DNA of 64,000 nt from Candidatus Omnitrophota bacterium (GTDB lineage: Bacteria > Omnitrophota > Gorgyraeia > Aquiviventales > Aquiviventaceae): the NCBI GenBank assembly GCA_016190215.1, contig JACPRA010000020.1, positions 12,868 through 76,867 of the forward strand, written 5' to 3'. The position numbers were made by a program, and so were the translations under genes. The stretch's first letter is position 1. Every line of letters begins with the position of its first letter. Under the pieces are notes generated by a model. The model was not told the origin of the DNA and did no database searches. It worked only from the letters and a program-made list of their open reading frames with translations. Of this stretch, positions 488 to 61,712 are shown one piece after another.

Positions 488-1839
488 TGATCGGCTCCAC
501 ACGACTCCTCGAGGAGTTGACGCGCCTGGCGGCCCGTTCGAAGGCGGACGGCACCAGCATCTGCGCGCAGGGGCAAGGGCGGCACGTGTTGCGCTTCGCC
601 TACGGCACGGTGCATCAGGTGCTGTTTCAAGAGCACATCACCGTCACCATCAAGGCCGTGCTGGGCAAACGGGTGGGGGTGGCCTCCACCGACACCTTCG
701 ACCGCGCGAGCTTGAACCGCACGCTGGCCGCCGCCGTGGCCCTGGCCCGGCACTCCCCCAACCACCCCTCGCTGCCGCCACTGCCCGCCTCTCATCAGCT
801 CTTGACCACGGAAGACCACGACGCTGCGACCGCCCAGGCCGGTCCGGAAGCCTTTTTGCCGTCGCTGAAGCGGCTGTTCCACCTCTGCCAGGGCGCGGGC
901 GCGTCGCTGGCCGGGTCGTGCGCCGTGGGGGAGGACGAGCTGGCCGTCGTCAATTCCGCCGGGGTGGCCTGCTATGCCGCCTCGACGCTGACCGGGGCGA
1001 AGCTGGTGACGATGTACCGCAAGCTCAGCGGCTTCTCCAGCCGGGTGGAGCGCCAGGTGAGCCGGCTCAACCTGGAAGCGCTGCTGGAAACTTCCTTGGG
1101 CCAGTGCCTGCACCGGCAGGCCCCCATCACACTGCCGCTGGGAACCTACGAGGTCATCCTGGAGCCGGAAGCGGTGGCGGAGCTGCTGATGTGGCTGGGT
1201 TCCATCGCGTTCGGCGCCAAGAGTTTTCATGAGAAGAGCAGCTGCATCTCCGGGCGCATCGGCGAGCAGGTGATGGACAAGCGCATCACGATCCTCGACG
1301 ACGGCGCGCACCCGGACGGGCTGCGGATGCTGTTCGATTTCGAGGGGGTGCCCAAGCGGCGCGTCCCGCTCATCAACCGCGGCACGGCGGCCGGCCTGGT
1401 CTACGATACGACCTACGGCCACCTGTACGGCCAGGCCTCCACCGGCCACGGCCTCCCGCCGGACGACGTGGAAGGCCCGCAACCCTTGCACATGTTCTTG
1501 GAGCCGGGCACCGCGTCCCGCGACGAGCTGATTCGCGGCTGCGAGCGGGGCGTCCTGATCCCGAGGTTCCACTACGTCAACGGCCTGCTGAACCCGCCTG
1601 AGGCGCTGATGACCGGCCTCACCCGCGAAGGCGCCTGGCTAATCGAGCGCGGCCGCCGCAAAGCACCGGTGACGACGCTGCGCTTCACGCACAGCCTGCT
1701 GGACGCGCTGCGCCATGTGGTGGCCATTTCGAAAGAGCGCCACCGCGTGGCCGACCCGATGCAGGAATCCGGCTGCGCGGTCGTGCCGGCGCTGCACCTG
1801 GCCCGGTTCAAATTCACCGGCCGCTCCGAGGACGCATGA
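487..1839 (+). CDS. pmbA: PmbA/TldE-family metalloprotease
   Basis: A 450-aa protein immediately downstream of tldD with a 1-nt start/stop overlap. Its composition and length fit a TldD/PmbA family partner. Confidence 0.65.
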   Translation: MIGSTRLLEELTRLAARSKADGTSICAQGQGRHVLRFAYGTVHQVLFQEHITVTIKAVLGKRVGVASTDTFDRASLNRTLAAAVALARHSPNHPSLPPLPASHQLLTTEDHDAATAQAGPEAFLPSLKRLFHLCQGAGASLAGSCAVGEDELAVVNSAGVACYAASTLTGAKLVTMYRKLSGFSSRVERQVSRLNLEALLETSLGQCLHRQAPITLPLGTYEVILEPEAVAELLMWLGSIAFGAKSFHEKSSCISGRIGEQVMDKRITILDDGAHPDGLRMLFDFEGVPKRRVPLINRGTAAGLVYDTTYGHLYGQASTGHGLPPDDVEGPQPLHMFLEPGTASRDELIRGCERGVLIPRFHYVNGLLNPPEALMTGLTREGAWLIERGRRKAPVTTLRFTHSLLDALRHVVAISKERHRVADPMQESGCAVVPALHLARFKFTGRSEDA

Positions 1840-3086
1840 ACCACAGCAGACAGCAGACAGCACACAGCCGACAGACAGGTCCAGAGCGGTATCCGCTTGT
1901 TCTGTTTGCTGTGTGCTGTGTGCTGTGCGCCGGGCTCTCCGTCGGATGCGCGGTGCTGTGGCCGATCGGCTCCCGGGTGCCCCATCATCCGGCCAGGGCG
2001 CAGGAAACACTGGAGGACGGCTACCACGATCACCCCGGCGTCATCCACGTGCACACCACGTACTCCCACGACGCCGACGGCACGCTGGCGGACGTCGCGC
2101 GGGTGGCCAACGCGGAAGGGCTGCACTACGTCATCACGACGGAGCACAATAATCTCCGCTCGCTGCGCGAAGGCAACCAGGGCTGGCACGGCATGACGCT
2201 GATCCTCGTGGGCGAGGAGGTCTCCACGCGGGACGGGCACGTGCTCGCGCTCAACGTGCAGGAGGAGATTGACCGGGACCAGCCCACCCAAGCGATCCTC
2301 GACGAGATCGCCCGGCAGGGCGGGCTGTCGTTCCTGGCCCACCCCTACTTCAAAAAACATCGCTGGAAGAACTGGTCCGTGCAGGGGTTCACCGGGATCG
2401 AGGGATACAACACCACCCACGACGCCTTCGACGAAAACCTGCTGCGCGTGGCGTTGTGGGGCCTGACGGTGTCGCCCCATACGCTGTATCTCTCGCTCGT
2501 GGACCGGCCGTACGATCCGCTGGACCGGTGGGACGCGCTGGTCCGTCGGCACGGCCGCGTCGTCGGCATCGGCTCCAGCGACGCGCATGAAGTCCGCCTG
2601 TTGGGGGTGAAATTCGTGCCGTATGAGGTGCTCTTCAAGCTGGTGCGCACGCACCTGCTCGTGCCCGCCGGCGCGGCGTTGTCGCCGGCCGCGGTGTACG
2701 AGGCGCTGCGCGCCGGCCATGCCTATTTTTCCCTGGACCTGCTCGCGGACGCCACCGGATTCACCTTCATGGCCGACGACGGCCAACAGGTCTTCGGCGT
2801 GATGGGCGATGAGATCGAGCTGGCCGACCCGATGCAGCTGACCGTCATCCTGCCGGCCTCGGCCCACCTCGCGCTCTTCAAAGACGGCAGCGTAACGGCC
2901 ACCAGCGTCGGGCGGGTGTGGCACATCCGCGTGAGCGAGCCGGGCAGTTACCGGGTGGAGGCTTCCTTGAACGGCAAGCCCTGGATTTTTTCCAACCCCA
3001 TCTACGTCAGCCTACAGCCTACAGCACACAGCATACAGAACGAGCCGTCGTCTTCAATGCCCTCCCCGACCCCCACCGCGGAGTGA
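1836..3086 (+). CDS. PHP-domain metal-dependent phosphoesterase, secreted/membrane-anchored
   Basis: Carries the HVHTTYSHDADG ... ITTEHNN PHP motifs. The N-terminus MNHSRQQTAHSRQ...[13 protein letters not shown] is encoded entirely by the family-1 palindrome. The start overlaps the pmbA stop (ATGA). Confidence 0.7.
   Translation: MNHSRQQTAHSRQTGPERYPLVLFAVCCVLCAGLSVGCAVLWPIGSRVPHHPARAQETLEDGYHDHPGVIHVHTTYSHDADGTLADVARVANAEGLHYVITTEHNNLRSLREGNQGWHGMTLILVGEEVSTRDGHVLALNVQEEIDRDQPTQAILDEIARQGGLSFLAHPYFKKHRWKNWSVQGFTGIEGYNTTHDAFDENLLRVALWGLTVSPHTLYLSLVDRPYDPLDRWDALVRRHGRVVGIGSSDAHEVRLLGVKFVPYEVLFKLVRTHLLVPAGAALSPAAVYEALRAGHAYFSLDLLADATGFTFMADDGQQVFGVMGDEIELADPMQLTVILPASAHLALFKDGSVTATSVGRVWHIRVSEPGSYRVEASLNGKPWIFSNPIYVSLQPTAHSIQNEPSSSMPSPTPTAE
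1843..1935. repeat. Palindromic heptamer-repeat element, family 1 (CAGCAGA/CAGCACA ... GCTGTGT), full hairpin
   Basis: The left arm cagcagacagcagacagcacacagccgacagacag and right arm ctgtttgctgtgtgctgtgtgctgtgcgcc form an inverted repeat. It is embedded in the first 35 codons of the PHP gene. Confidence 0.85.
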
Positions 3087-3152
3087 CCGGCAACCCCCTA
3101 TGACGCGCCGAAACATGTTCACTCTGTTTGCTGTGTGCTGTCTGCTATGTGC
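3008..3152. repeat. Family-1 repeat, two arms separated by about 80 nt spanning the PHP 3' end and lipoprotein 5' end
   Basis: The left arm is cctacagcctacagcacacagcatacag (3008-3040). The right arm is ctgtttgctgtgtgctgtctgctatgtgct (3118-3150). The right arm encodes the lipoprotein signal peptide LFAVCCLLCASLGC. Confidence 0.75.
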
Positions 3153-4065
3153 TAGCCTGGGCTGCGCCCACGTGCGGCTGGACCCGCGCTATCAGGGCGT
3201 CCAACCGCTTCCTCCTGAGGCCGTCGAGTACTACACCGTCCCGGGCGAGCCGCCCGCTGCGGAACCGGAATGGATCGAGGAGCGCAGAGCGTACCGTCGA
3301 GGTATGGTGCGATTTCCGTTGCAGGCGGATTTCGAGCCCACCGAACCGATGGTGGAGATCGAATGGTTCGAATCCCGCAAACCCGGCCGGCGGCCGGCGA
3401 TCCTCTTTTCCCCGATCCTCGGCGGCGACTACCCGCTGGAGCGAGGATTTTGCAAGTACTTTGCTTCCAAAGGGTTCCATGTCGCTTTGGTCCACAGAAA
3501 AACGCTGAAAATTTCTCCGGAGCACGGCGCCGACCGCATCGAGCTGTTGCTGCGCCAGACCGTCGTGCGCAACCGGCAGATCGTCGGCTGGATGAGCCGG
3601 CAGCCGCGCGTGGACCCGGAGCGACTCGGCGGCGTCGGCATCAGCATGGGCGGGATGGCGGATCTCATCACGGCGGCGGTGGAGCCGCGCCTGAAAGCGC
3701 ATGTCGTCCTCCTGGCCGGCGGCAGCTTGGCCGACATCATCCGCGATTCCCGCGACCGCCTGCTGACCAAACCCCGCGGCCGGTATCTGGCCGCCCACGG
3801 CCTGGATATCCCGACGATGCACCGGCGGCTCAGCGACGAGATCCACACCGATCCGCTGCGCTTCGCTCCGTACGTGGATGCCAGGCGGCTGCTCATGTTC
3901 ATCGCCCTCAACGACTCCACCATCGGCCGGAGCAACGCGCTGCGGCTCTGGCGCGCCGTCGGAAAACCACAGGTCATTTTCGCCCCAACCGGCCATTACA
4001 CCTCCTACCTGTACTTGCCCTATCTTAAATACGCCTCCCTGAAATTCCTCCGCAAGCACCTGTAA
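3100..4065 (+). CDS. Lipoprotein with alpha/beta-hydrolase fold
   Basis: Has a lipobox SLGC after a hydrophobic N-terminus and a GISMGG nucleophile-elbow-like motif. About 320 aa. Confidence 0.5.
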   Translation: MTRRNMFTLFAVCCLLCASLGCAHVRLDPRYQGVQPLPPEAVEYYTVPGEPPAAEPEWIEERRAYRRGMVRFPLQADFEPTEPMVEIEWFESRKPGRRPAILFSPILGGDYPLERGFCKYFASKGFHVALVHRKTLKISPEHGADRIELLLRQTVVRNRQIVGWMSRQPRVDPERLGGVGISMGGMADLITAAVEPRLKAHVVLLAGGSLADIIRDSRDRLLTKPRGRYLAAHGLDIPTMHRRLSDEIHTDPLRFAPYVDARRLLMFIALNDSTIGRSNALRLWRAVGKPQVIFAPTGHYTSYLYLPYLKYASLKFLRKHL

Positions 4066-7195: not shown

Positions 7196-7310
7196 ACTTG
7201 ATTATGGATGCCTGACGAAAGATGATGCTGGATGACTGATGATAGGTGATGGATGTCGTTCGCCCTTCATCAATCATCCATCATCAGGCATCAATCATCT
7301 CTCCTCAGAA
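7196..7310. repeat. Palindromic element of about 100 bp, family 3 (GATGATGGATG), copy 1
   Basis: The arms gatgcctgacga...gatgatag and catcaatcatccatcatcaggcatc form a long stem. It is about 93% identical to the copy at 18858-18975. It sits between the convergent genes yjbQ and the C45 peptidase. Confidence 0.85.
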
Positions 7311-8508
7311 GTTCCTCTACGTTAAGGCGGTGGTACGGGGTCTGAGCCGCCCGCGTCATTCCCTGCGCATTGGCGACCCACATGTCGGGCCACGCAAACA
7401 CCACGCTTTGCATATTGGAGCCGGGGGCCACCGCCTGCGCGATTTGCATCGCGCCCTGGGCGTCGAGACGGCCGTAGTGGGCCATGAGGCCGGCGGCTTG
7501 GCCGAGATAGCGCACCTCATACGCGGAGCCGGACGGCGGCTCCAGCCCCGGGCGCTTGGGGTCCCCGCCGGAGGCGATCTGCCTGGCGCGGATGCCGGGG
7601 TCCATCGCCGTATCCGCGCGCAGCACGGCATCCGGCACCGGGCGGGCGTAGGAGACTCCGGCTTCCTTCGGGTCGTCCGCCTGGAAGACCACCGCCTGCC
7701 GGTGCGTGGTTTCGACCGCCACCGCCCGCGGCGGCTCGGCCTGCGCGATCACGTAGTTGACGCCGACGGTGCGGGGCGCCGTCCGGATGATCTCCACCGC
7801 TTGGTCCAGCGCGGAGGCGTCTTCCAACACGCGGCGCATCAGGAACACCATGGGGATCCCGCGGGCGGAGATGTCGTCGGTTTCCGCGCCCACCTGCCCG
7901 ATCGAGATCGCCTGGTCATTGATGCCGGTGAGGACGCCGATAAACCCGGCCCACCCCGCATTCACAAACGCGCGGCGGCCCGACGGCTTCACCACGAACA
8001 CCGCCGCAAACTGCTGGAGGCCCACCTCGATGTTCCAATCCAGGTTCCGGCTATGCACCAGCCGTCCCGATGAGGTGGCGCGCCCCCAGGCCGCCACGTT
8101 CGCGCAGGAATACGTGCGGTCTGGAATCGCGTGCAGGCGGGCCAGCTCGCGCAGCGGCACGCCGGACCCCTGCGCCAACCCCCGCAGTTCTTCGCGGTAG
8201 GCCTCCGGCAGAAAATCCCATCCCTGCGCCCAGGCACGGTCCAGCCACCAGTCCGCCGCCCAGCGGTTGACCAGCGGCACCTTCAGGTAGCGCCGGAAGT
8301 AGCTCAGCACCTGCGCCACACACTGCCGCACCTCCTCGCGCAGCAGCTCCCCATGCTGCCGTCCCAGCTCGTACGGTGAGCCCTCCAGAAAAACGATGGG
8401 AAGTTCTTCCTGATATTCGACGTGCGCCGCCTCCGCCGTGACAAGTGACAAGTTACAAGTGACAAGAATCATGACCAACCACACTCGCCAGGTTCGCATT
8501 TCTTTCAC
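7291..8508 (-). CDS. C45-family peptidase (acyl-CoA:6-APA acyltransferase-like), secreted
   Basis: Has the autoproteolytic YSCANVAAWG motif region. The signal peptide MILVTCNLSLVTAEA is encoded by the GTGACAAG repeat arm. An AGGTGA RBS precedes the start. Confidence 0.5.
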   Translation of the reverse strand: MKEMRTWRVWLVMILVTCNLSLVTAEAAHVEYQEELPIVFLEGSPYELGRQHGELLREEVRQCVAQVLSYFRRYLKVPLVNRWAADWWLDRAWAQGWDFLPEAYREELRGLAQGSGVPLRELARLHAIPDRTYSCANVAAWGRATSSGRLVHSRNLDWNIEVGLQQFAAVFVVKPSGRRAFVNAGWAGFIGVLTGINDQAISIGQVGAETDDISARGIPMVFLMRRVLEDASALDQAVEIIRTAPRTVGVNYVIAQAEPPRAVAVETTHRQAVVFQADDPKEAGVSYARPVPDAVLRADTAMDPGIRARQIASGGDPKRPGLEPPSGSAYEVRYLGQAAGLMAHYGRLDAQGAMQIAQAVAPGSNMQSVVFAWPDMWVANAQGMTRAAQTPYHRLNVEELLRRDD

Positions 8509-8570
8509 CTGTCACCTGTCACGTGTCACTTGTTGCCCGCCCTGTCACCTATCACTTCATCCATCATCCG
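8436..8570. repeat. Family-2 heptamer repeat (GTGACAG), inverted pair
   Basis: The left arm is gtgacaagtgacaagttacaagtgacaag (8438-8466). The right arm is cacctgtcacctgtcacgtgtcacttgt...ctgtcacctatcac (8505-8560). The left arm encodes the C45 signal peptide. The right arm encodes the ceramidase C-terminus GDRAGNK plus stop. Confidence 0.85.
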
Positions 8571-18857: not shown

Positions 18858-18959
18858 GGCTCATGATGCTGAATGCCTGATGAAAGATGATGCCGGATGA
18901 CTGATGATAGATGATGGATGTAATTCGCCCTTCATCAATCATCCATCATCAGGCATCAA

Positions 18960-18975
<16 letters not shown>
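18858..18975. repeat. Palindromic element of about 100 bp, family 3, copy 2
   Basis: Near-identical to 7196-7310. It lies between glpD and glpK. Confidence 0.85.
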
Positions 18976-28016: not shown

Positions 28017-28580
28017 TCATGATCCCTTTTTGCCGCCGGCGGCATACCGGTCGTTGAGCGACTTCAGCACTTCGTCGGTGAGATCGTAGACATCGTCGCC
28101 GACGATCAGCGAGCGCTGGTCCAGCACCAGGGAAAATCCGTTCGCCCTGGCGTACGCGGTGACGGCGCCGTCAATCTCATCAAAAATCTGCTTGGCCACC
28201 TGGTTGCGGTCGCGCACCGACTCCCGCTCGCTCTTGGTCTTGAGCCGCTGGAATTCGTCCGACTTCTCTTCCAGCTCTTTCGACTTGGCTTCTTTCGCCT
28301 GGTCGTTGAGCAGCTCCAGGTTCTGCCGCATCTTCTTGAGCTCGCCGAGCCGCCCTTCCAGCTCCGACAGCTTCTGCTTGCCGCGCTGCTCCAGCACCTG
28401 CTCGGTATCCTTGGTGCGCTGGTACTCTTCAAACACACGGACCAGGTTCACGTAGCCGATTTTCAGCTCGGCCGCCTTCAGGACGGGACAGGAGACAGGT
28501 GACAGGAGACAGGTGCCAACCAACAACGCTCGGATGCTCCAGGACATCATCCACGTGTTCAGCCGAACTGGCGTCTTCAT
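28017..28580 (-). CDS. skp: OmpH/Skp periplasmic chaperone
   Basis: Has a signal peptide. The coiled-coil is rich in Lys/Glu (KIGYVNLVRVFEEY...). It sits between bamA and the lpx genes. Confidence 0.7.
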   Translation of the reverse strand: MKTPVRLNTWMMSWSIRALLVGTCLLSPVSCPVLKAAELKIGYVNLVRVFEEYQRTKDTEQVLEQRGKQKLSELEGRLGELKKMRQNLELLNDQAKEAKSKELEEKSDEFQRLKTKSERESVRDRNQVAKQIFDEIDGAVTAYARANGFSLVLDQRSLIVGDDVYDLTDEVLKSLNDRYAAGGKKGS

Positions 28581-28662
28581 CACGTCGTCTCTCCTCATGC
28601 AGTTGTTGTGTCGTCGCATACCTGTCTCACTTGTAACCTGTCACGTGTCACCTGTTACTTTG
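28478..28662. repeat. Family-2 heptamer repeat (GTGACAG), inverted pair flanking the skp 5' end
   Basis: One arm is gacaggagacaggtgacaggagacaggtgcc (28478-28520). The other is cctgtctcacttgtaacctgtcacgtgtcacctgtt (28620-28660). The first arm encodes the Skp signal peptide LLVGTCLLSPVSCPV. Confidence 0.8.
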
Positions 28663-34684: not shown

Positions 34685-34775
34685 TCAGCACACAGCTGAC
34701 AGCACACAGCCGACAGCAGACAGAGGAAACGCCGTAATGAAATGTCTGTGTGCTGTCTGCTGTGTGCTCAAGGCT
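34682..34775. repeat. Family-1 palindromic heptamer element, full hairpin
   Basis: cagcacacagctgacagcacacagccgacagcagacag, then a loop, then ctgtgtgctgtctgctgtgtgct. It lies between the pth start and the rplY stop. Confidence 0.85.
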
Positions 34776-37960: not shown

Positions 37961-38084
37961 CGGTCTGTGTGCTCCTTACCAACCTCGTTGCTGTGCCGAT
38001 TCATGATACCGTTTCTCTAACAGTTGCCCCGACGTGACGAGGATCGCGGCTCCCTTCGAGCCCTGGAATACCCACGACAAAACC

Positions 38085-38154
38085 TGGGGAGCCAGGGCTC
38101 GAACCTGGACGTAGGGCTTCAAAGGCCCTTGTGCTACCGTTACACTACTCCCCA
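38085..38154 (-). tRNA. tRNA-Gln (anticodon UUG)
   Basis: Manual fold of the reverse complement TGGGGAGTAGTGTAACGGTAGCACAAGGGCCTTTGAAGCCCTACGTCCAGGTTCGAGCCCTGGCTCCCCA. It has a 7-bp acceptor stem, anticodon loop CTTTGAA (TTG) and T-loop TTCGAGC. CCA is not encoded. Confidence 0.85.
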
Positions 38155-54369: not shown

Positions 54370-55797
54370 TCATTGCGGTCCTTCGCCGGCGTGCTTCTCC
54401 AGCGCGAACTTGTCCCCCTCATCGCCGAAGGGAATGGGATACTGGCCGGTCCAGCAGGCCGTGCAGTAGCGCTCCGGGTGCGTGACGCCTTTCTGCAGCC
54501 GCTCCAGCGAGAGGTAGCCGAGGGTGTCCGCCCCGATGAATTTGCGGATCTCCTCCAGCGACATCCGGTTGGCGATCAGCTCTTTCCTCGTCGGAAAATC
54601 CACCCCGTAGAAGCAGGAATACGACGTCGGCGGGCAGCTGATGCGCATGTGCACTTCTTTCGCGCCCGCTTCCCGAAGGCTTTTGATGCGCGCGCGCGTC
54701 GTCGTGCCGCGGATGAGCGAGTCATCCACGACCACCAAGCGCTTCCCTTTGATGATGTCGCGGATCGGATTGAACTTCACGCGCACTTTGAGGTCGCGGA
54801 TTTCCTGGGCGGGCTGGATGAAGGTCCGCCCGACGTAGTGGTTGCGGATGATGCCCAGCGCGAAGGGTATCTGCGACTCCAGGCTGAAACCCAGGGCGGC
54901 GAAGTTGCCTGAGTCCGGGATCGGCATCACCAGGTCCGCCTTCACCGGGTGCTCCTGGGCGAGCTGGCGTCCCAGTTTGACCCGCACCTCCTGCACGCTC
55001 TCGCCGAAGATGCGCGAGTCCGGCCGCGCGAAGTAGACATGCTCGAAGAGGCAATGGGTCGGCTGGACGGCCGGCTGGTCCTTGAAGGGAAACAGCGAGC
55101 GGAGGCCGGTCGGGCTGATGACGAGCACTTCGCCGGGGGCGACTTCGCGCACGAACCGCGCGCCGATCAGGTCCAGAGCGCACGTCTCCGATGCCAGCAC
55201 GTAGGTCTTGTTCAGCTTGCCCAAGCAGAGCGGCTTGAACCCGTTGGGGTCGCGGCAGCCGAACAGGCCGTCCGGCGTCAGGCACAGCAGCGAGTAGGCG
55301 CCCTTGAGCATCGGCAGCGACTCCATCAAATCTTCCTCAAAGGTCTTGTGTGTGGAGCGCGCCAGCAGGTGCAGGATGATCTCGCTGTCAATGCTGGTCT
55401 GGAAGATGGAGCCGGTCCCTTCGAGCATCCGGCGCAGCTCGTAGGCGTTGACCAAGTTGCCGTTGTGCGCGAGCGCGACCGAGCCCTTGGCGTACGTCAC
55501 CAGCAGGGGCTGCGCGTTCTTGAGGTGGCTCGAGCCGGTGGTGGAGTAGCGCGTGTGGCCGATGGCGGCGCGGCCGGGCAGCAGCCGCAGCGCCTCCTCA
55601 TGGAAGACCTCGGACACCAAGCCCTGCCCCTTGTGGGAATGCATCTTGCGGCCCTGGGAGGTGACGATGCCGGCCGCTTCTTCGCCGCGATGCTGCAGCG
55701 AATACAACCCCAGATAGGTCAGCCGCGCGGCGTCGCGATGGCTCCAAATGCCGAAGAGCCCGCAGGCTTCTTTGGCGCGGTCTTGATCCACACTCAT
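54370..55797 (-). CDS. purF: Amidophosphoribosyltransferase
   Basis: CGLFGIW contains the N-terminal nucleophile Cys, preceded by a short propeptide. The start at MSVDQ gives an ATGA overlap with the purL stop; the ORF also extends to 55824. Confidence 0.85.
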   Translation of the reverse strand: MSVDQDRAKEACGLFGIWSHRDAARLTYLGLYSLQHRGEEAAGIVTSQGRKMHSHKGQGLVSEVFHEEALRLLPGRAAIGHTRYSTTGSSHLKNAQPLLVTYAKGSVALAHNGNLVNAYELRRMLEGTGSIFQTSIDSEIILHLLARSTHKTFEEDLMESLPMLKGAYSLLCLTPDGLFGCRDPNGFKPLCLGKLNKTYVLASETCALDLIGARFVREVAPGEVLVISPTGLRSLFPFKDQPAVQPTHCLFEHVYFARPDSRIFGESVQEVRVKLGRQLAQEHPVKADLVMPIPDSGNFAALGFSLESQIPFALGIIRNHYVGRTFIQPAQEIRDLKVRVKFNPIRDIIKGKRLVVVDDSLIRGTTTRARIKSLREAGAKEVHMRISCPPTSYSCFYGVDFPTRKELIANRMSLEEIRKFIGADTLGYLSLERLQKGVTHPERYCTACWTGQYPIPFGDEGDKFALEKHAGEGPQ

Positions 55798-58100
55798 GCC
55801 GTCCTCCGAAACGCGCCACGCCATGCCGCGCTTAGTTCTCCGATGCCCGCGTCAATCCATTCCCCGATTTTCACGCGGCCTCCGCCGACGGTGCCGACCA
55901 ACCGCGCCGGCACGCCGGCGCGCGCGGTCAAGGCCGCCACCCGCTTGGTGCGGTGCGGCTCGCAGCTGATCACCACGCGCCCGGCGGACTCGCCGAAGAG
56001 CAGCGCATCTAATCTCAGTGACAGGTGACAGGTGACAAGTGACAGGTCCAACACAGCGCCAATGATATGATCCGGCTCCGCGATGCAGCACTCTGCCACC
56101 GCCACGGCCAGCCCGCCTTCGGCGCAATCATGCGCGGACTTCCACAGCCCGGCCCGCGCGCCCTCCACCAGCAACTGCTGCAACCGGCGCTCCGCCGCCA
56201 AGTCCACGCGCGGCGGCCGGCCCTGCTTGCGGTGATGGATCAGCTTGAGATATTCGCTCGCCCCCAGCTCCTCGCGCGTCTCGCCCAGCAGCCAGACCAG
56301 ATCTCCTTCATCCTTAAATCCCATCGTCACCGGCGCATAGCAGGCGCGTCCCTCTGTATGCTGTATGCTGTGTGCTGTGTGCTGAATCAATCCGATCATC
56401 CCGATCACCGGCGTGGGGTCCACCGCTCCGCGCGGGCTTTCGTTGTAGAGGCTGACATTGCCGCCGGTCACCGGCGTGCCGAAGGCGCGGCAGGCCTCGG
56501 AGATGCCGCGCACGCATTCGCGAAACTGCCACATGACGCCGGGGTCCAAGGGGCTGCCGAAATTGAGGCAATCCGTCACCGCCAGCGGCTCGGCCCCGAC
56601 GCAGGCCACGTTGCGCGCGGCTTCGGCCACGGCGAGCTTACCGCCTTCGTACGGGTCGAGCAGGCAGTACGTGCCATTGGCGTCCGTCGTCGCGGCCAGC
56701 AGCGTGCCGGTGCCTTTCAGGCGCAGCACCGCCGCGTCCGACCGGCCCGGCAGCACGACGGTGTTGGTCTGGACCATGTGGTCGTACTGCTCGTATACGG
56801 CTGCTTTATCGGCGATCGTGGGCGAGCCCAGCAGCTGCAGCAGGGTGTGATTCAGGTCGCGCGGCACCGGCACGGCGCGCAGCGGCAAGCGCTGGAGACG
56901 CGCAAAGCCCGCCGGGCGCTTGACCGGGCGGCGGTAGACCGGCGCCCCGTGCGTCAGCGCGGCGACCGGGGCATCCGCCACGAGCTCAGTCCCGTCGAAG
57001 ACGCGCACCCGGTCGCCGCCGGTGACGCGGCCGATCGTCACGGCATTCAATCCCCATTTGGCGAAGAGCTTCTTCACCGCGGCTTCTTGGCCCTGCTTAG
57101 CGATGAGCAGCATCCGCTCCTGCGATTCGGAGAGCATCACCTCGTAGGGCGTCATGCCGGTTTCGCGCCGGGGCACTTTGGCGACGTCAATCTCCATGCC
57201 GCACCCGCCGCGCGACGCGGTCTCAGAGGTGGAGCAGGTCAAGCCGGCGGCACCCATGTCCTGGATGCCGACGACGTCGCCGGTGGCCAGCGCCTCCAGC
57301 GTCGCCTCGATCAGACATTTCTCGGCGAACGGATCGCCAAGCTGCACCGCCGGGCGGTCCGCTTCGGATTCGTCGCTCAGCTCCCGCGAGGCGAAGCTGG
57401 CCCCGCCCAGGCCGTCGCGGCCCGTCGAGGAGCCGACGTAGATCACCGGGTTGCCCCTCCCGCGCGCCGCACCCTTCGCCACCGCTGTGTGCGGCACGAC
57501 GCCGATGCACATCACGTTGACCAGCGGATTCTCCCGATACGCTTCATCGAAGTAGATTTCTCCGCCCACCGTCGGCACGCCGACGGAGTTGCCGTAATCG
57601 GCGATGCCTTTCACGACCCCCTCGAACAGGAACCGCGTGCGGGCGTGGCCGTTGAGCGGACCGAAGCGCAGGCTGTCGAACAGCGCAATCGGCCGCGCGC
57701 CCATCGTGAAGATGTCGCGGATGATGCCGCCGACCCCGGTGGCCGCCCCGGCATGCGGTTCCACCGCTGAGGGGTGGTTGTGCGACTCGGCCTTGAACGC
57801 GACTGCCAGGCCGTCGCCGATATCCACCAGCCCCGCATTCTCCTTGCCGGCCGCCACCAGGATCCGCTTGCCTTTCGTCGGAAACGTCCTCAGATAAATC
57901 TTCGAGCTCGCGTAAGAACAATGTTCGGCCCAGAGGACGCCAAACATTCCCACTTCGGTCAGCGTGGGCGGGCGGCGCAGGATGCGCACGATCTGCGCGT
58001 ACTGCTCATCAGTCAGGTTGTGCGATTTCGCCACCCGACGGACGAGCCGCTCATCGTCTTTCACTGTGGGAGCCGTCGGCCTGGCTGGACTCATCGGCAC
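55794..58100 (-). CDS. purL: Phosphoribosylformylglycinamidine synthase subunit PurL, carrying two in-frame repeat insertions
   Basis: Full-length PurL (768 aa). The GTGACAG repeat at 56003-56047 encodes ...[15 protein letters not shown]... The GCTGTGT repeat at 56338-56382 encodes ...[15 protein letters not shown]... Both are in frame. Confidence 0.9.
56003..56047. repeat. Family-2 GTGACAG repeat arm inside the purL coding sequence
   Basis: cagtgacaggtgacaggtgacaagtgacaggtcc. It has no partner arm nearby. Confidence 0.8.
56338..56382. repeat. Family-1 GCTGTGT/ATGCTGT repeat arm inside the purL coding sequence
   Basis: ctctgtatgctgtatgctgtgtgctgtgtgctgaatc. Confidence 0.8.
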
Positions 58101-59911: not shown

Positions 59912-60361
59912 TCACTCGTCCACAGCCGGATCGGGCGGCAGCTCGCGCGGCGGCAGCGCCGGCGGTTTCGGAACGTTCAGCTCCGGGGTCGGCGCGAGCT
60001 GATAGGACAACACCCGGTTGTCCCGCACCTGAAACGGCACCACTTCCATCACCAGGTCGAAGGGAATCCACATGTAGGGCGGCGCCTTGAGCAGGGTGAG
60101 ATCGTCCGTCCGCTCATAGCCGTCCTTGACGAGGGCGATGCGGTGCCAGCCGTACCATTCAAAATCGTAGGTATAGGGGGTGACCCCTTGCATCTTGTGG
60201 TCATTGACGAAAATGACCGCACCCGGCGGGTTGGATTTGATCGTCAGGCTGCGGTGCAGGCAACCCGTGATCAGCAGACAGCAGACAGCACACAGCACAC
60301 AGATAAAGCGGTTGATCGGTTGGTCTTCCTGTCCGCTGTATGCTGTCTGCTGTGTGCTCAT
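59912..60361 (-). CDS. PEGA-domain lipoprotein
   Basis: Has a lipobox LITGC. PGAVIFVNDHKMQGVTPY...RIALVKDGYE is a PEGA-like domain. The first 35 codons (MSTQQTAYSGQ...FICVLCAVCCLLITGC) are encoded by a complete family-1 palindrome. The start overlaps the purB stop. Confidence 0.6.
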   Translation of the reverse strand: MSTQQTAYSGQEDQPINRFICVLCAVCCLLITGCLHRSLTIKSNPPGAVIFVNDHKMQGVTPYTYDFEWYGWHRIALVKDGYERTDDLTLLKAPPYMWIPFDLVMEVVPFQVRDNRVLSYQLAPTPELNVPKPPALPPRELPPDPAVDE

Positions 60362-61653: not shown

Positions 61654-61675
61654 ACGGCTTCCCCGAAGAAGTACG

Positions 61676-61712
61676 AGGTGACAGGTGACAGGTGACAGGT
61701 GACAGGAGGAAC
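61676..61712. repeat. Family-2 GTGACAG tandem (4 units) in the purB 5' leader
   Basis: gaggtgacaggtgacaggtgacaggtgacaggagg. Confidence 0.8.

Follow-up and report, generated by a model that had tools for sequence, protein, structure and literature searches.

Inverted heptamer arrays at gene junctions of an Omnitrophota lineage and their likely translation as signal peptides of exported proteins

Can a simple palindromic repeat write the signal peptide of an exported protein and, if so, does it bring export to that protein or take the place of a signal peptide that was already there? The question is raised by a 64,000-nt stretch of contig JACPRA010000020.1 from a Candidatus Omnitrophota bacterium (hereafter the window, meaning this whole stretch), in which inverted pairs of arrays of tandem 7-nt units, with ACAGCAC in one arm and GTGCTGT in the other, lie at the 5′ ends of lipoprotein genes. 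A preliminary description of this DNA had interpreted them as one mobile palindrome that is used repeatedly as a ready-made export signal. We consider it likely that they are, instead, lineage-specific heptamer palindromes at gene junctions, which are translated as the n- and h-regions of signal peptides before exported proteins and have replaced older signal peptides there. The data below establish the anatomy of these elements, their restriction to a lineage, their position at cistron junctions, their in-frame continuity with conserved cleavage sites, the ancestral export of the affected proteins and the turnover of the arrays.

The first of the genes concerned, the open reading frame (ORF) 1836..3086, encodes a PHP/CehA-family lipoprotein. 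Its N-terminal hairpin has the following parts:

1836..1838, forward strand: ATG start codon of the PHP/CehA-family lipoprotein; it forms ATGA with the TGA stop (1837-1839) in which the preceding pmbA/tldD-like gene ends
1841..1874, forward strand: A/C-rich 5′ arm of CAGCAGA/CAGCACA units, encoding the polar n-region HSRQQTAHSRQT
1875..1897, forward strand: loop of the hairpin, encoding GPERYPL
1898..1932, forward strand: T/G-rich 3′ arm of GCTGTGT units, encoding the h-region
1947..1949, forward strand: codon of the lipobox Cys38 (LSVGC, followed by A), invariant in 31 orthologues

Both arms lie inside the ORF, the 5′ arm reading CAGCAGA CAGCAGA CAGCACA CAGCCGA and so on, and the 3′ arm the complementary CTGTTTG CTGTGTG CTGTGTG and so on. 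The same ATGA overlap is present at the loci L001, L002, L004 and L133. The protein is 100% identical to P0001, a "CehA/McbA family metallohydrolase" of a Candidatus Omnitrophica metagenome-assembled genome, for which NCBI gives a start at GTG 1953, two codons downstream of the Cys38 codon and downstream of the repeat, yielding 377 aa as against 416 aa from ATG 1836. This annotation agrees with a reading in which the repeats are untranslated hairpins of 5′ untranslated or intergenic regions, the true starts lie downstream, and ORFs pass through the repeats only since their units are stop-free. Indeed, all six frames of T-free units are without stop codons, and many copies of the repeat are truly untranslated (see below). 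The conservation of the protein nevertheless renders this reading very improbable. Cys38 is invariant in 31 of 31 PHP orthologues (53-75% identical to the window protein) and Gly37 nearly so in the alignment; because the invariant Cys always follows a hydrophobic stretch, the region can be identified as a lipobox. The NCBI start would remove both this Cys and the hydrophobic core that is kept in the 31 orthologues, and it is probably wrong because the invariant Cys38 is lost. From the pyrimidine-rich arm to Cys38, no start codon occurs, the only in-frame start that gives an n-region being ATG 1836. Furthermore, the canonical signal peptides of heptamer-free relatives align to the same position, as in the PHP protein of L005, which has an ordinary signal peptide there (MRRQRWPQLLCLLVAGAAAGC). 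Truncated alternative starts have also been called for the PHP orthologue P0011 (P0017 and P0023). The invariant Cys38, the lack of an alternative start and the heptamer-free relatives bear out the earlier statement that the inverted repeat at the N-terminus of PHP is coding and not intergenic.

Two further lipoproteins, an alpha/beta-hydrolase encoded by the next gene (ORF 3100..4065) and a PEGA protein on the reverse strand (ORF 59912..60361), carry arms of the same family:

3005..3039, forward strand: A/C-rich 5′ arm of the second hairpin, translated as the PHP C-terminal tail SLQPTAHSIQN
3040..3122, forward strand: long loop, in which PHP ends (stop at 3084-3086) and, after a 13-nt spacer, the next gene begins (ATG at 3100, n-region MTRRNMFT)
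3123..3153, forward strand: T/G-rich 3′ arm, encoding the h-region LFAVCCLLCA of the alpha/beta-hydrolase lipoprotein; lipobox Cys22 codon at 3163-3165
60329..60359, reverse strand: A/C-rich arm, encoding the PEGA n-region STQQTAYSGQ; the ATG (60361-60359) overlaps the TGA stop of a purB-like gene as ATGA
60270..60306, reverse strand: T/G-rich arm, encoding the PEGA h-region ICVLCAVCCLLI; lipobox Cys34 codon at 60262-60260

Within the hydrolase ORF, the arm at 3123-3153 encodes LFAVCCLLCASLGC. The lipobox core [LVI][ASTVI][GAS]C (PROSITE PS51257-type) is matched at residues 28-38 of PHP, 12-22 of the hydrolase and 24-34 of PEGA. The hydrolase Cys (GC, followed by A) is kept in 8 orthologous loci besides the window. 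Of the 10 PEGA orthologues fetched, 9 keep the Cys and one is a call truncated at its N-terminus; the PEGA orthologues retain the motif xGC followed by [LIV]xR. Here again, a heptamer-free relative (PEGA protein P0131) has an ordinary signal peptide at the same position (MKKLILLLFLLLFFSLFSAGC). Two observations from these genes count further against untranslated hairpins. First, the NCBI annotation of the PEGA protein runs through the repeat. Second, a positive n-region charge is specific to the real frame: counted from the ATG, the n-region net charge is +2 in PHP, +2 in the hydrolase and -1 in PEGA; 13 of 15 n-regions across loci are net positive; and the summed net charge of the 15 cases is +30 in the real frame vs +12 and -3 in the other two. 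PHP, hydrolase and PEGA all start upstream of the repeat, and the ORF translations confirm that the same element supplies the N-termini of the latter two, as had been proposed. Re-inspection of the sequence and ORFs likewise found the repeat coordinates and translations of the preliminary description to be correct; our analysis adds the partner arm at 3005-3039, a lone arm in purL, further heptamer families and an identical polar-to-hydrophobic reading on both strands. At L133 (7977-8066), the purine arm is apparently read in two frames, as a PHP C-terminal tail (...PSTQHTE, then a stop) and as an overlapping hydrolase n-region (MTSQQHQAHSTQ...).

Why should a heptamer hairpin read as a signal peptide at all? 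Because a tandem 7-nt unit cycles through all three frames every 21 nt, translation in any frame gives the same periodic peptide of seven residues, and units that are T-free on one strand, such as ACAGCAC, are open in all six frames. Thus, (ACAGCAC)n is translated as TAHSTQH, with a mean Kyte-Doolittle value of -1.47, and its complement as VLCAVCC, with +3.07, the strongest polar/hydrophobic asymmetry among the families examined. The T-poor arm encodes polar residues only (Thr, Ala, His, Ser, Gln, Arg), and its complement only Val, Leu, Cys, Ala, Phe and similar residues. Given this composition and the palindromic arrangement of the arms, a hairpin read 5′ to 3′ on either strand yields a polar stretch followed by a hydrophobic one. 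As the palindrome reads alike on both strands, no orientation relative to a gene start can be defined for it; what can be compared meaningfully is which arm, A-rich or T-rich, comes first.

The ACAGCAC/GTGCTGT inverted arrays occupy five sites of the window (65.8% G+C), namely the recurring pairs at 1841-1874/1898-1932, 3005-3039/3123-3153, 34686-34769 and 60270-60359, and the lone arm at 56353-56387. A chance origin is excluded, because the 12-mer GCTGTGTGCTGT is matched 19 times in the window with at most one mismatch as against 0.32 expected, and none of 100 shuffles reaches 19. As RNA, the pairs form stems of 25-30 bp with -46 to -57 kcal/mol (z from -3.4 to -6.4); their two arms are 81-88% complementary, and variant units in one arm are uncompensated in the other. 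By means of Tandem Repeats Finder and a period scan of our own, we found about 27 heptamer arrays at about 14 sites of the window, with the additional unit families GTGACAG/GTGACAA, GGATGAC/TCATCAA, AGCGTAC, TGAAGTA and TCGTCGC. There is no single characteristic unit: ACAGCAC, GTGACAG, GGATGAC, AGTCCAC and others are all in use, with TAACTGC as an occasional variant only. The arrays are of 3-5 units and degenerate (about 75-95% matches). In a tandem-period test of the window, 18 arrays had a period of 7, and none had a period of 5, 8 or 10. The same structures recur in many independent assemblies, and an assembly artefact was rejected on this ground.

Two hairpins of the window show that signal peptides are also encoded by families other than ACAGCAC:

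28485..28660, reverse strand: Skp/OmpH hairpin, of a family different from ACAGCAC, made up of a GACAGGA/GACAGGT arm (28485-28515) and a TCACCTG-type arm (28627-28660)
8437..8555, reverse strand: GTGACAA/TCACCTG-family hairpin, in which the 5′ arm lies beyond the end of the upstream gene, the loop holds the start codon, and the h-region ILVTCNLSLVT is encoded by the 3′ arm

In the former, the 5′ arm lies in the BamA-Skp spacer, the start codon of Skp/OmpH (ORF 28017..28619, reverse strand) in the loop, and the 3′ arm forms the h-region TCLLSPVSCPV; the latter belongs to a C45-like secreted hydrolase (ORF 7291..8508, reverse strand). This geometry, with the start codon in the loop and the 5′ arm after the upstream stop or forming it, arises because the purine arm of the GTGACAG family contains TGA. 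Altogether, about 5 of the 10 signal-peptide proteins in the window are affected by heptamer arrays, and, of the 6 translated pyrimidine-rich arms, 5 belong to signal-peptide regions, whose share of the coding sequence is about 1.6% (binomial p ~6e-9). At the same site in PHP, hydrolase and PEGA orthologues from elsewhere, we found at least five other units, giving peptide pairs such as SPQSIVHSPQ and CGLWTVDCGL, RGQRSEVRGQ and LISDFCLLTS, or QKAEGRRQ and LPTAYCLLL; inspection of the DNA of the Omnitrophota loci L001-L004 confirmed the arrays at these sites. Heptamer-free relatives of the C45-like protein, like those of PHP, the hydrolase and PEGA, have ordinary signal peptides at the same position.

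These findings bear on the possibility that one mobile ACAGCAC palindrome has been domesticated as an export cassette, conferring export wherever it lands. Such a cassette would fit with the ACAGCAC family encoding signal peptides in at least eight unrelated protein families, with some loops being common to unrelated loci, and with the polar/hydrophobic asymmetry (-1.47 vs +3.07) being strongest in this family. Nevertheless, families with other units encode signal peptides just as well; the outgroup orthologues have signal peptides of their own, which leaves no sign of export having been gained; roughly half of the copies stand untranslated before genes whose products were read as non-exported, for the most part cytoplasmic; comparison with the closest relative shows replacement of a near-equal length of sequence by the arm and not its insertion; and one loop holds the host's stop codon, spacer and start codon. 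We therefore regard the export cassette as unlikely. Neither a single palindrome family, as had been assumed, nor a repeat that provides export survives the comparison, given the GTGACAG-type unit of Skp and the C45-like protein, the at least five other units among orthologues, and the signal peptides of the outgroups. What can be retained of the ready-made export signal is the translation of the arms as n- and h-regions of lipoprotein signal peptides, with about 10 metagenome cases. As the affected proteins already have signal peptides in heptamer-free relatives, the repeats replaced existing signal peptides, which supports the explanation in terms of junction palindromes that overwrite older sequence.

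How widely are these arrays distributed? The census covers the window, L001-L004 and 98 metagenome stretches. A profile search of genome contigs with the PHP alignment retrieved about 8 close relatives, and, among 80 loci encoding PHP relatives, heptamer richness is common only to the four Omnitrophota loci L001-L004. The window and these four loci have 2.4-7 period-7 arrays per 10 kb, with other periods near zero; across the 80 loci, no period-7 arrays were found in the close relatives L005-L009 or in almost all other phyla. A metagenome scan for the ACAGCAC hairpin recovered the 98 stretches, with at least 44 true heptamer hairpins. Isolated arrays were seen outside Omnitrophota at L025 (11562-11629), L039, L044 and L068, the labels of which comprise one Planctomycetota locus, Anaerolineales (L068) and "uncultured delta proteobacterium" (L039 and L044); one example is a (GACAGAT/GGCAGAC)n array of 68 nt. 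The phenomenon may hence extend beyond this clade at low density. Protein-level searches were less informative: a 38-residue signal-peptide query against 1.84 billion representative proteins gave one marginal match, the query being too short and compositionally biased, and a profile of 11 repeat-encoded signal peptides against a 5.8-billion-protein index matched only hypothetical proteins of 37-72 aa (P0133-P0178), which are probably spurious ORFs called across untranslated hairpins.

If the arrays encode signal peptides in some places, what do they do in others? The window has one untranslated copy of the ACAGCAC family and two arrays inside the gene for PurL (55794-58100, reverse strand):

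34686..34769, reverse strand: untranslated copy of the ACAGCAC family, filling the spacer between the rplY stop and the pth start; the pth ATG (34684) lies 1-2 nt after the arm
56353..56387, reverse strand: single ACAGCAC-type array in PurL, in frame, in a loop absent from the T. thermophilus PurL structure
56016..56047, reverse strand: single GTGACAG-type array in PurL, in frame

The copy between pth and rplY had been noted before and is confirmed at these coordinates. The two PurL arrays, from different families, both occupy surface loops that are shorter in the T. thermophilus structure 3viu. In the metagenome stretches, automatic ORF read-through calls proved misleading, as stop-free arms extend every downstream ORF, and genes were reclassified by recognisable N-termini. 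About 35 distinct ACAGCAC hairpins could be classified in this way. Signal peptides are encoded by about 10 of them, and the proteins affected include LptE-like, amidohydrolase, cytochrome-like, PHP and hydrolase proteins; in the signal-peptide hairpins, the ATG lies 0-12 nt before the 5′ arm and overlaps the upstream stop in 9 of 12 cases. In about 17, the 3′ arm is followed at -3 to +31 nt by the ATG of a gene whose product was read as non-exported (in most cases cytoplasmic, with a few membrane proteins), such as mtnA, rplK, trpS, pfk, treY, pilM and pth; another 8 or so are placed at contig edges or where two genes converge. The stop codons upstream are found 0-28 nt before the 5′ arm or inside the hairpin. 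From this classification, it follows that the hairpins fill cistron junctions generally and become part of an ORF only for exported proteins; the in-frame exceptions are the two PurL loops and C-terminal tails such as 3005-3039.

The tight geometry at these junctions, with stops 0-28 nt before the stem and an ATG -3 to +31 nt after it, or with an ATG/stop overlap (9 of 12 signal-peptide cases), raises the possibility that the hairpins are RNA devices selected for translational coupling and ribosome hand-over or for mRNA processing and stability, signal-peptide coding being a by-product. The stems are very stable, several cases leave no room for a Shine-Dalgarno site between arm and ATG, and the TAACTGA repeats of Beggiatoaceae, which likewise lie a few nt upstream of starts with few Shine-Dalgarno sites, offer a precedent (PMC4679880). 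However, a selected RNA structure sits poorly with variant units uncompensated between arms that are 81-88% complementary, with single arms and T-rich-arm-first hairpins, both of which occur, and with close relatives lacking the hairpin at the same junctions. It is also at odds with the outcome of RNA searches in the window: intrinsic terminators are not in excess (12 terminator-like sites vs 10.9 expected), with the hairpins not called as such, and a scan with Rfam covariance models matched no hairpin. We rejected the hairpins as intrinsic terminators for want of any terminator excess or signature, and as members of a known RNA family in view of the Rfam result, the sole Rfam match in the window being a tRNA gene (38084-38154, reverse strand). 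An RNA function at cistron junctions is a possibility that we entertain with some reserve; it is compatible with the explanation favoured here, to which it would add a function. A more far-reaching combination seems doubtful to us, namely that the hairpins form an interchangeable operon module handing ribosomes from stop to start at the feet of the stem, the stop-free versions of which double as a copy-and-paste signal-peptide cassette. Were it true, the cassette would be swappable between genes and could, in principle, turn a cytoplasmic into an exported protein in one step.

Comparison with the closest relatives throws light on how the arrays come and go. In the closest relative of PHP (L179, 77% amino acid identity), the flanks and part of the pyrimidine arm are conserved, whereas the purine arm is replaced by unrelated sequence, with a length difference of just 6 nt; the PHP-hydrolase junction of L179 is without both arms. 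In the closest relative of PEGA, the unit is CTTACGG, and the loop contains an AAGGAG site followed by a GTG start. At the arm sites of PHP, the PHP-hydrolase junction and PEGA, no target-site duplication or added length was found relative to these relatives. Some loops are common to unrelated loci, although most ACAGCAC loops differ and one holds a host gene junction. Two hairpins of about 100 nt in the window (7205-7299 and 18863-18964) are near-identical, loops included, with a 5′ arm of 24-nt period (TGGATGACTGACGAAAGATGATGC) and a 3′ arm made up of the unit TCATCAA. One of the two is flanked by convergent genes, and about 22 nt separate the other from a start codon downstream; they look like copies of one dispersed element. 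The term "mobile" in the preliminary description hence finds partial support in the shared loops, but the closest relative shows replacement of near-equal length and not insertion.

Repeats in the coding region of a leader peptide, made of units not divisible by three and found on surface lipoproteins, which are typical targets of phase variation (PMC5354566 for opa), also recall contingency loci, in which slipped-strand gain or loss of 7-nt units would shift the frame and switch the lipoproteins on and off. We consider this highly unlikely here. The arrays are short (3-5 units) and degenerate (~75-95% matches), the same arrays flank housekeeping genes and sit inside purL, and unit numbers are unchanged among near-identical contigs from different samples (L095, L114 and L137), with P0011 identical on 23 contigs. 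On the strength of these stable unit numbers, phase variation was rejected. The comparisons suggest copying or template-switch overwriting with fast turnover as the probable mode of change.

The explanation that we favour can be put as follows. The clade carries palindromes of two inverted arrays, each of about 3-6 degenerate 7-nt units. Between the arrays is a loop of about 4-110 nt, the A-rich, T-poor arm usually comes first, and the whole spans the distance from a few nt after a stop codon to a few nt before the next start. Before exported proteins, the 5′ foot of the hairpin holds the start codon, which in many cases shares ATGA with the preceding stop; where stop codons occur in the 5′ arm, the start codon is found in the loop. 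The arms would then be translated as n- and h-regions, followed by the conserved lipobox or AxA site encoded by the host gene, and signal peptidase II or I would remove the repeat peptide and leave the mature protein unchanged. The affected proteins being ancestrally exported, the arrays have probably overwritten older signal-peptide sequence, a change that would be tolerated since charge and hydrophobicity are all that a signal peptide requires; at other sites, the hairpins stay untranslated intercistronic elements. Where the start codon adjoins a stem of -50 kcal/mol, initiation would presumably depend on coupling to the upstream ORF, and the arrays may spread by copying or template switching.

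Several points weigh against this explanation or narrow it. Initiation would normally be blocked by a stem of about -50 kcal/mol that sets in at the start codon, so that expression would have to rely on coupling. ORFs run through T-free units by default, which makes the read-through evidence partly trivial and places the weight on orthologue conservation. NCBI starts the PHP protein downstream of the repeat. The n-region of PEGA has a charge of -1 from its ATG, and its true start could be an internal GTG that would leave a very short signal peptide. Cleavage, lipidation and export of the affected proteins are predictions from sequence rules. The A-rich-arm-first order is a preference only: in families outside the search target, the A-rich arm comes first in 8 cases and the T-rich arm in 3, with 8 neutral. 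Finally, the gene context at metagenome loci was classified by hand, from G+C content at third codon positions (GC3) and recognisable protein motifs and not with a gene finder.

Among known repeats, the STRR heptamers of cyanobacteria are heptanucleotide tandem repeats of the same general kind, and the REP/BIME, ERIC, Correia and MITE-like elements are abundant short palindromes of junctions and operon spacers that form stable mRNA stem-loops. The nearest precedent is the TAACTGA-type heptamer repeats of Beggiatoaceae, cyanobacteria and Bacteroidetes, which are mostly intergenic, some overlapping upstream stops or being translated at protein termini (PMC4679880). Like the TAACTGA repeats, the Omnitrophota arrays have 2-6 tandem 7-nt units, many copies per genome, a lineage-restricted distribution and a position near start codons. 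Unlike those repeats, they combine several unrelated coexisting units, mostly in inverted pairs with 25-30 bp stems, at 66% GC. Moreover, the translated copies in Omnitrophota systematically form signal peptides, and the sections of the TAACTGA report drawn on here describe neither hairpin pairs nor signal peptides. The Rickettsia palindromic elements (RPE) are in-frame translated palindromes at positions compatible with protein function (PMC10969869); the heptamer insertions in PurL resemble them in being in frame and translated, whereas RPE are of about 100-150 bp with a conserved consensus, and that paper makes no mention of a supply of signal peptides. Of the REP/BIME, ERIC, Correia and MITE-like palindromes, some are occasionally fused to ORFs (PMC10969869). 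In contrast to REP and MITE, no terminal inverted repeats or target-site duplication were found in the Omnitrophota hairpins, nor a conserved consensus beyond the loops that some copies have in common, their arms being tandem heptamers of variable number, and their loops can hold host stop and start codons. In Neisseria, the CTCTT repeats of opa and the poly-G tract of pilC lie in leader-peptide coding regions (PMC5354566), but these are perfect, hypervariable direct repeats that act as frameshift switches, whereas the Omnitrophota arrays are degenerate, strain-stable and palindromic, and are also found at housekeeping genes. PARCELs, stretches of repeated coding DNA that show dyad symmetry and are linked to membrane-targeted proteins and lipoproteins (PMC2996958), are horizontally spread 25-residue domain repeats in mature proteins, and neither heptanucleotide arrays nor signal peptides. 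None of the systems compared combines tandem heptamers, inverted pairing and systematic signal-peptide encoding, and a literature search on Omnitrophota with heptamer repeats and on repeat-encoded signal peptides found no earlier description.

For the evolution of signal peptides, these elements indicate that a simple-sequence palindrome can write a whole functional protein segment, the genetic code guaranteeing a polar peptide from the T-poor arm and a hydrophobic one from its complement, and that orthologous signal peptides are replaceable wholesale and repeatedly while the cleavage site stays fixed. They also raise the question of how genes are translated where a stem of about -50 kcal/mol starts at the start codon or ends shortly before it, and where space for a Shine-Dalgarno site is lacking. 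For annotation, the consequence is that gene callers disagree at the hairpins: the truncated PHP protein looks cytoplasmic, and small spurious ORFs are called on hairpins. Secretome predictions for Omnitrophota are therefore likely to be biased.

Some minor arrays depart from the common pattern. Upstream of purB by 22 nt, there is a perfect single array, (AGGTGAC)x4, at 61674-61709, with no partner arm found; on the purB mRNA strand, it reads CCTGTCA/CACCT and resembles the 3′ end of 16S rRNA. Hairpins with the T-rich arm first were seen at L165 (331-409), L003 (1018-1096) and L140 (1200-1395), that of L165 between divergent gene starts and that of L140 with a run of about 190 nt of TGAGTGC/TGTGTGC units. 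At L001 (13079-13103), a single (AGCTAGG)n array puts three AGGAG motifs directly before an ATG and could itself supply Shine-Dalgarno sites.

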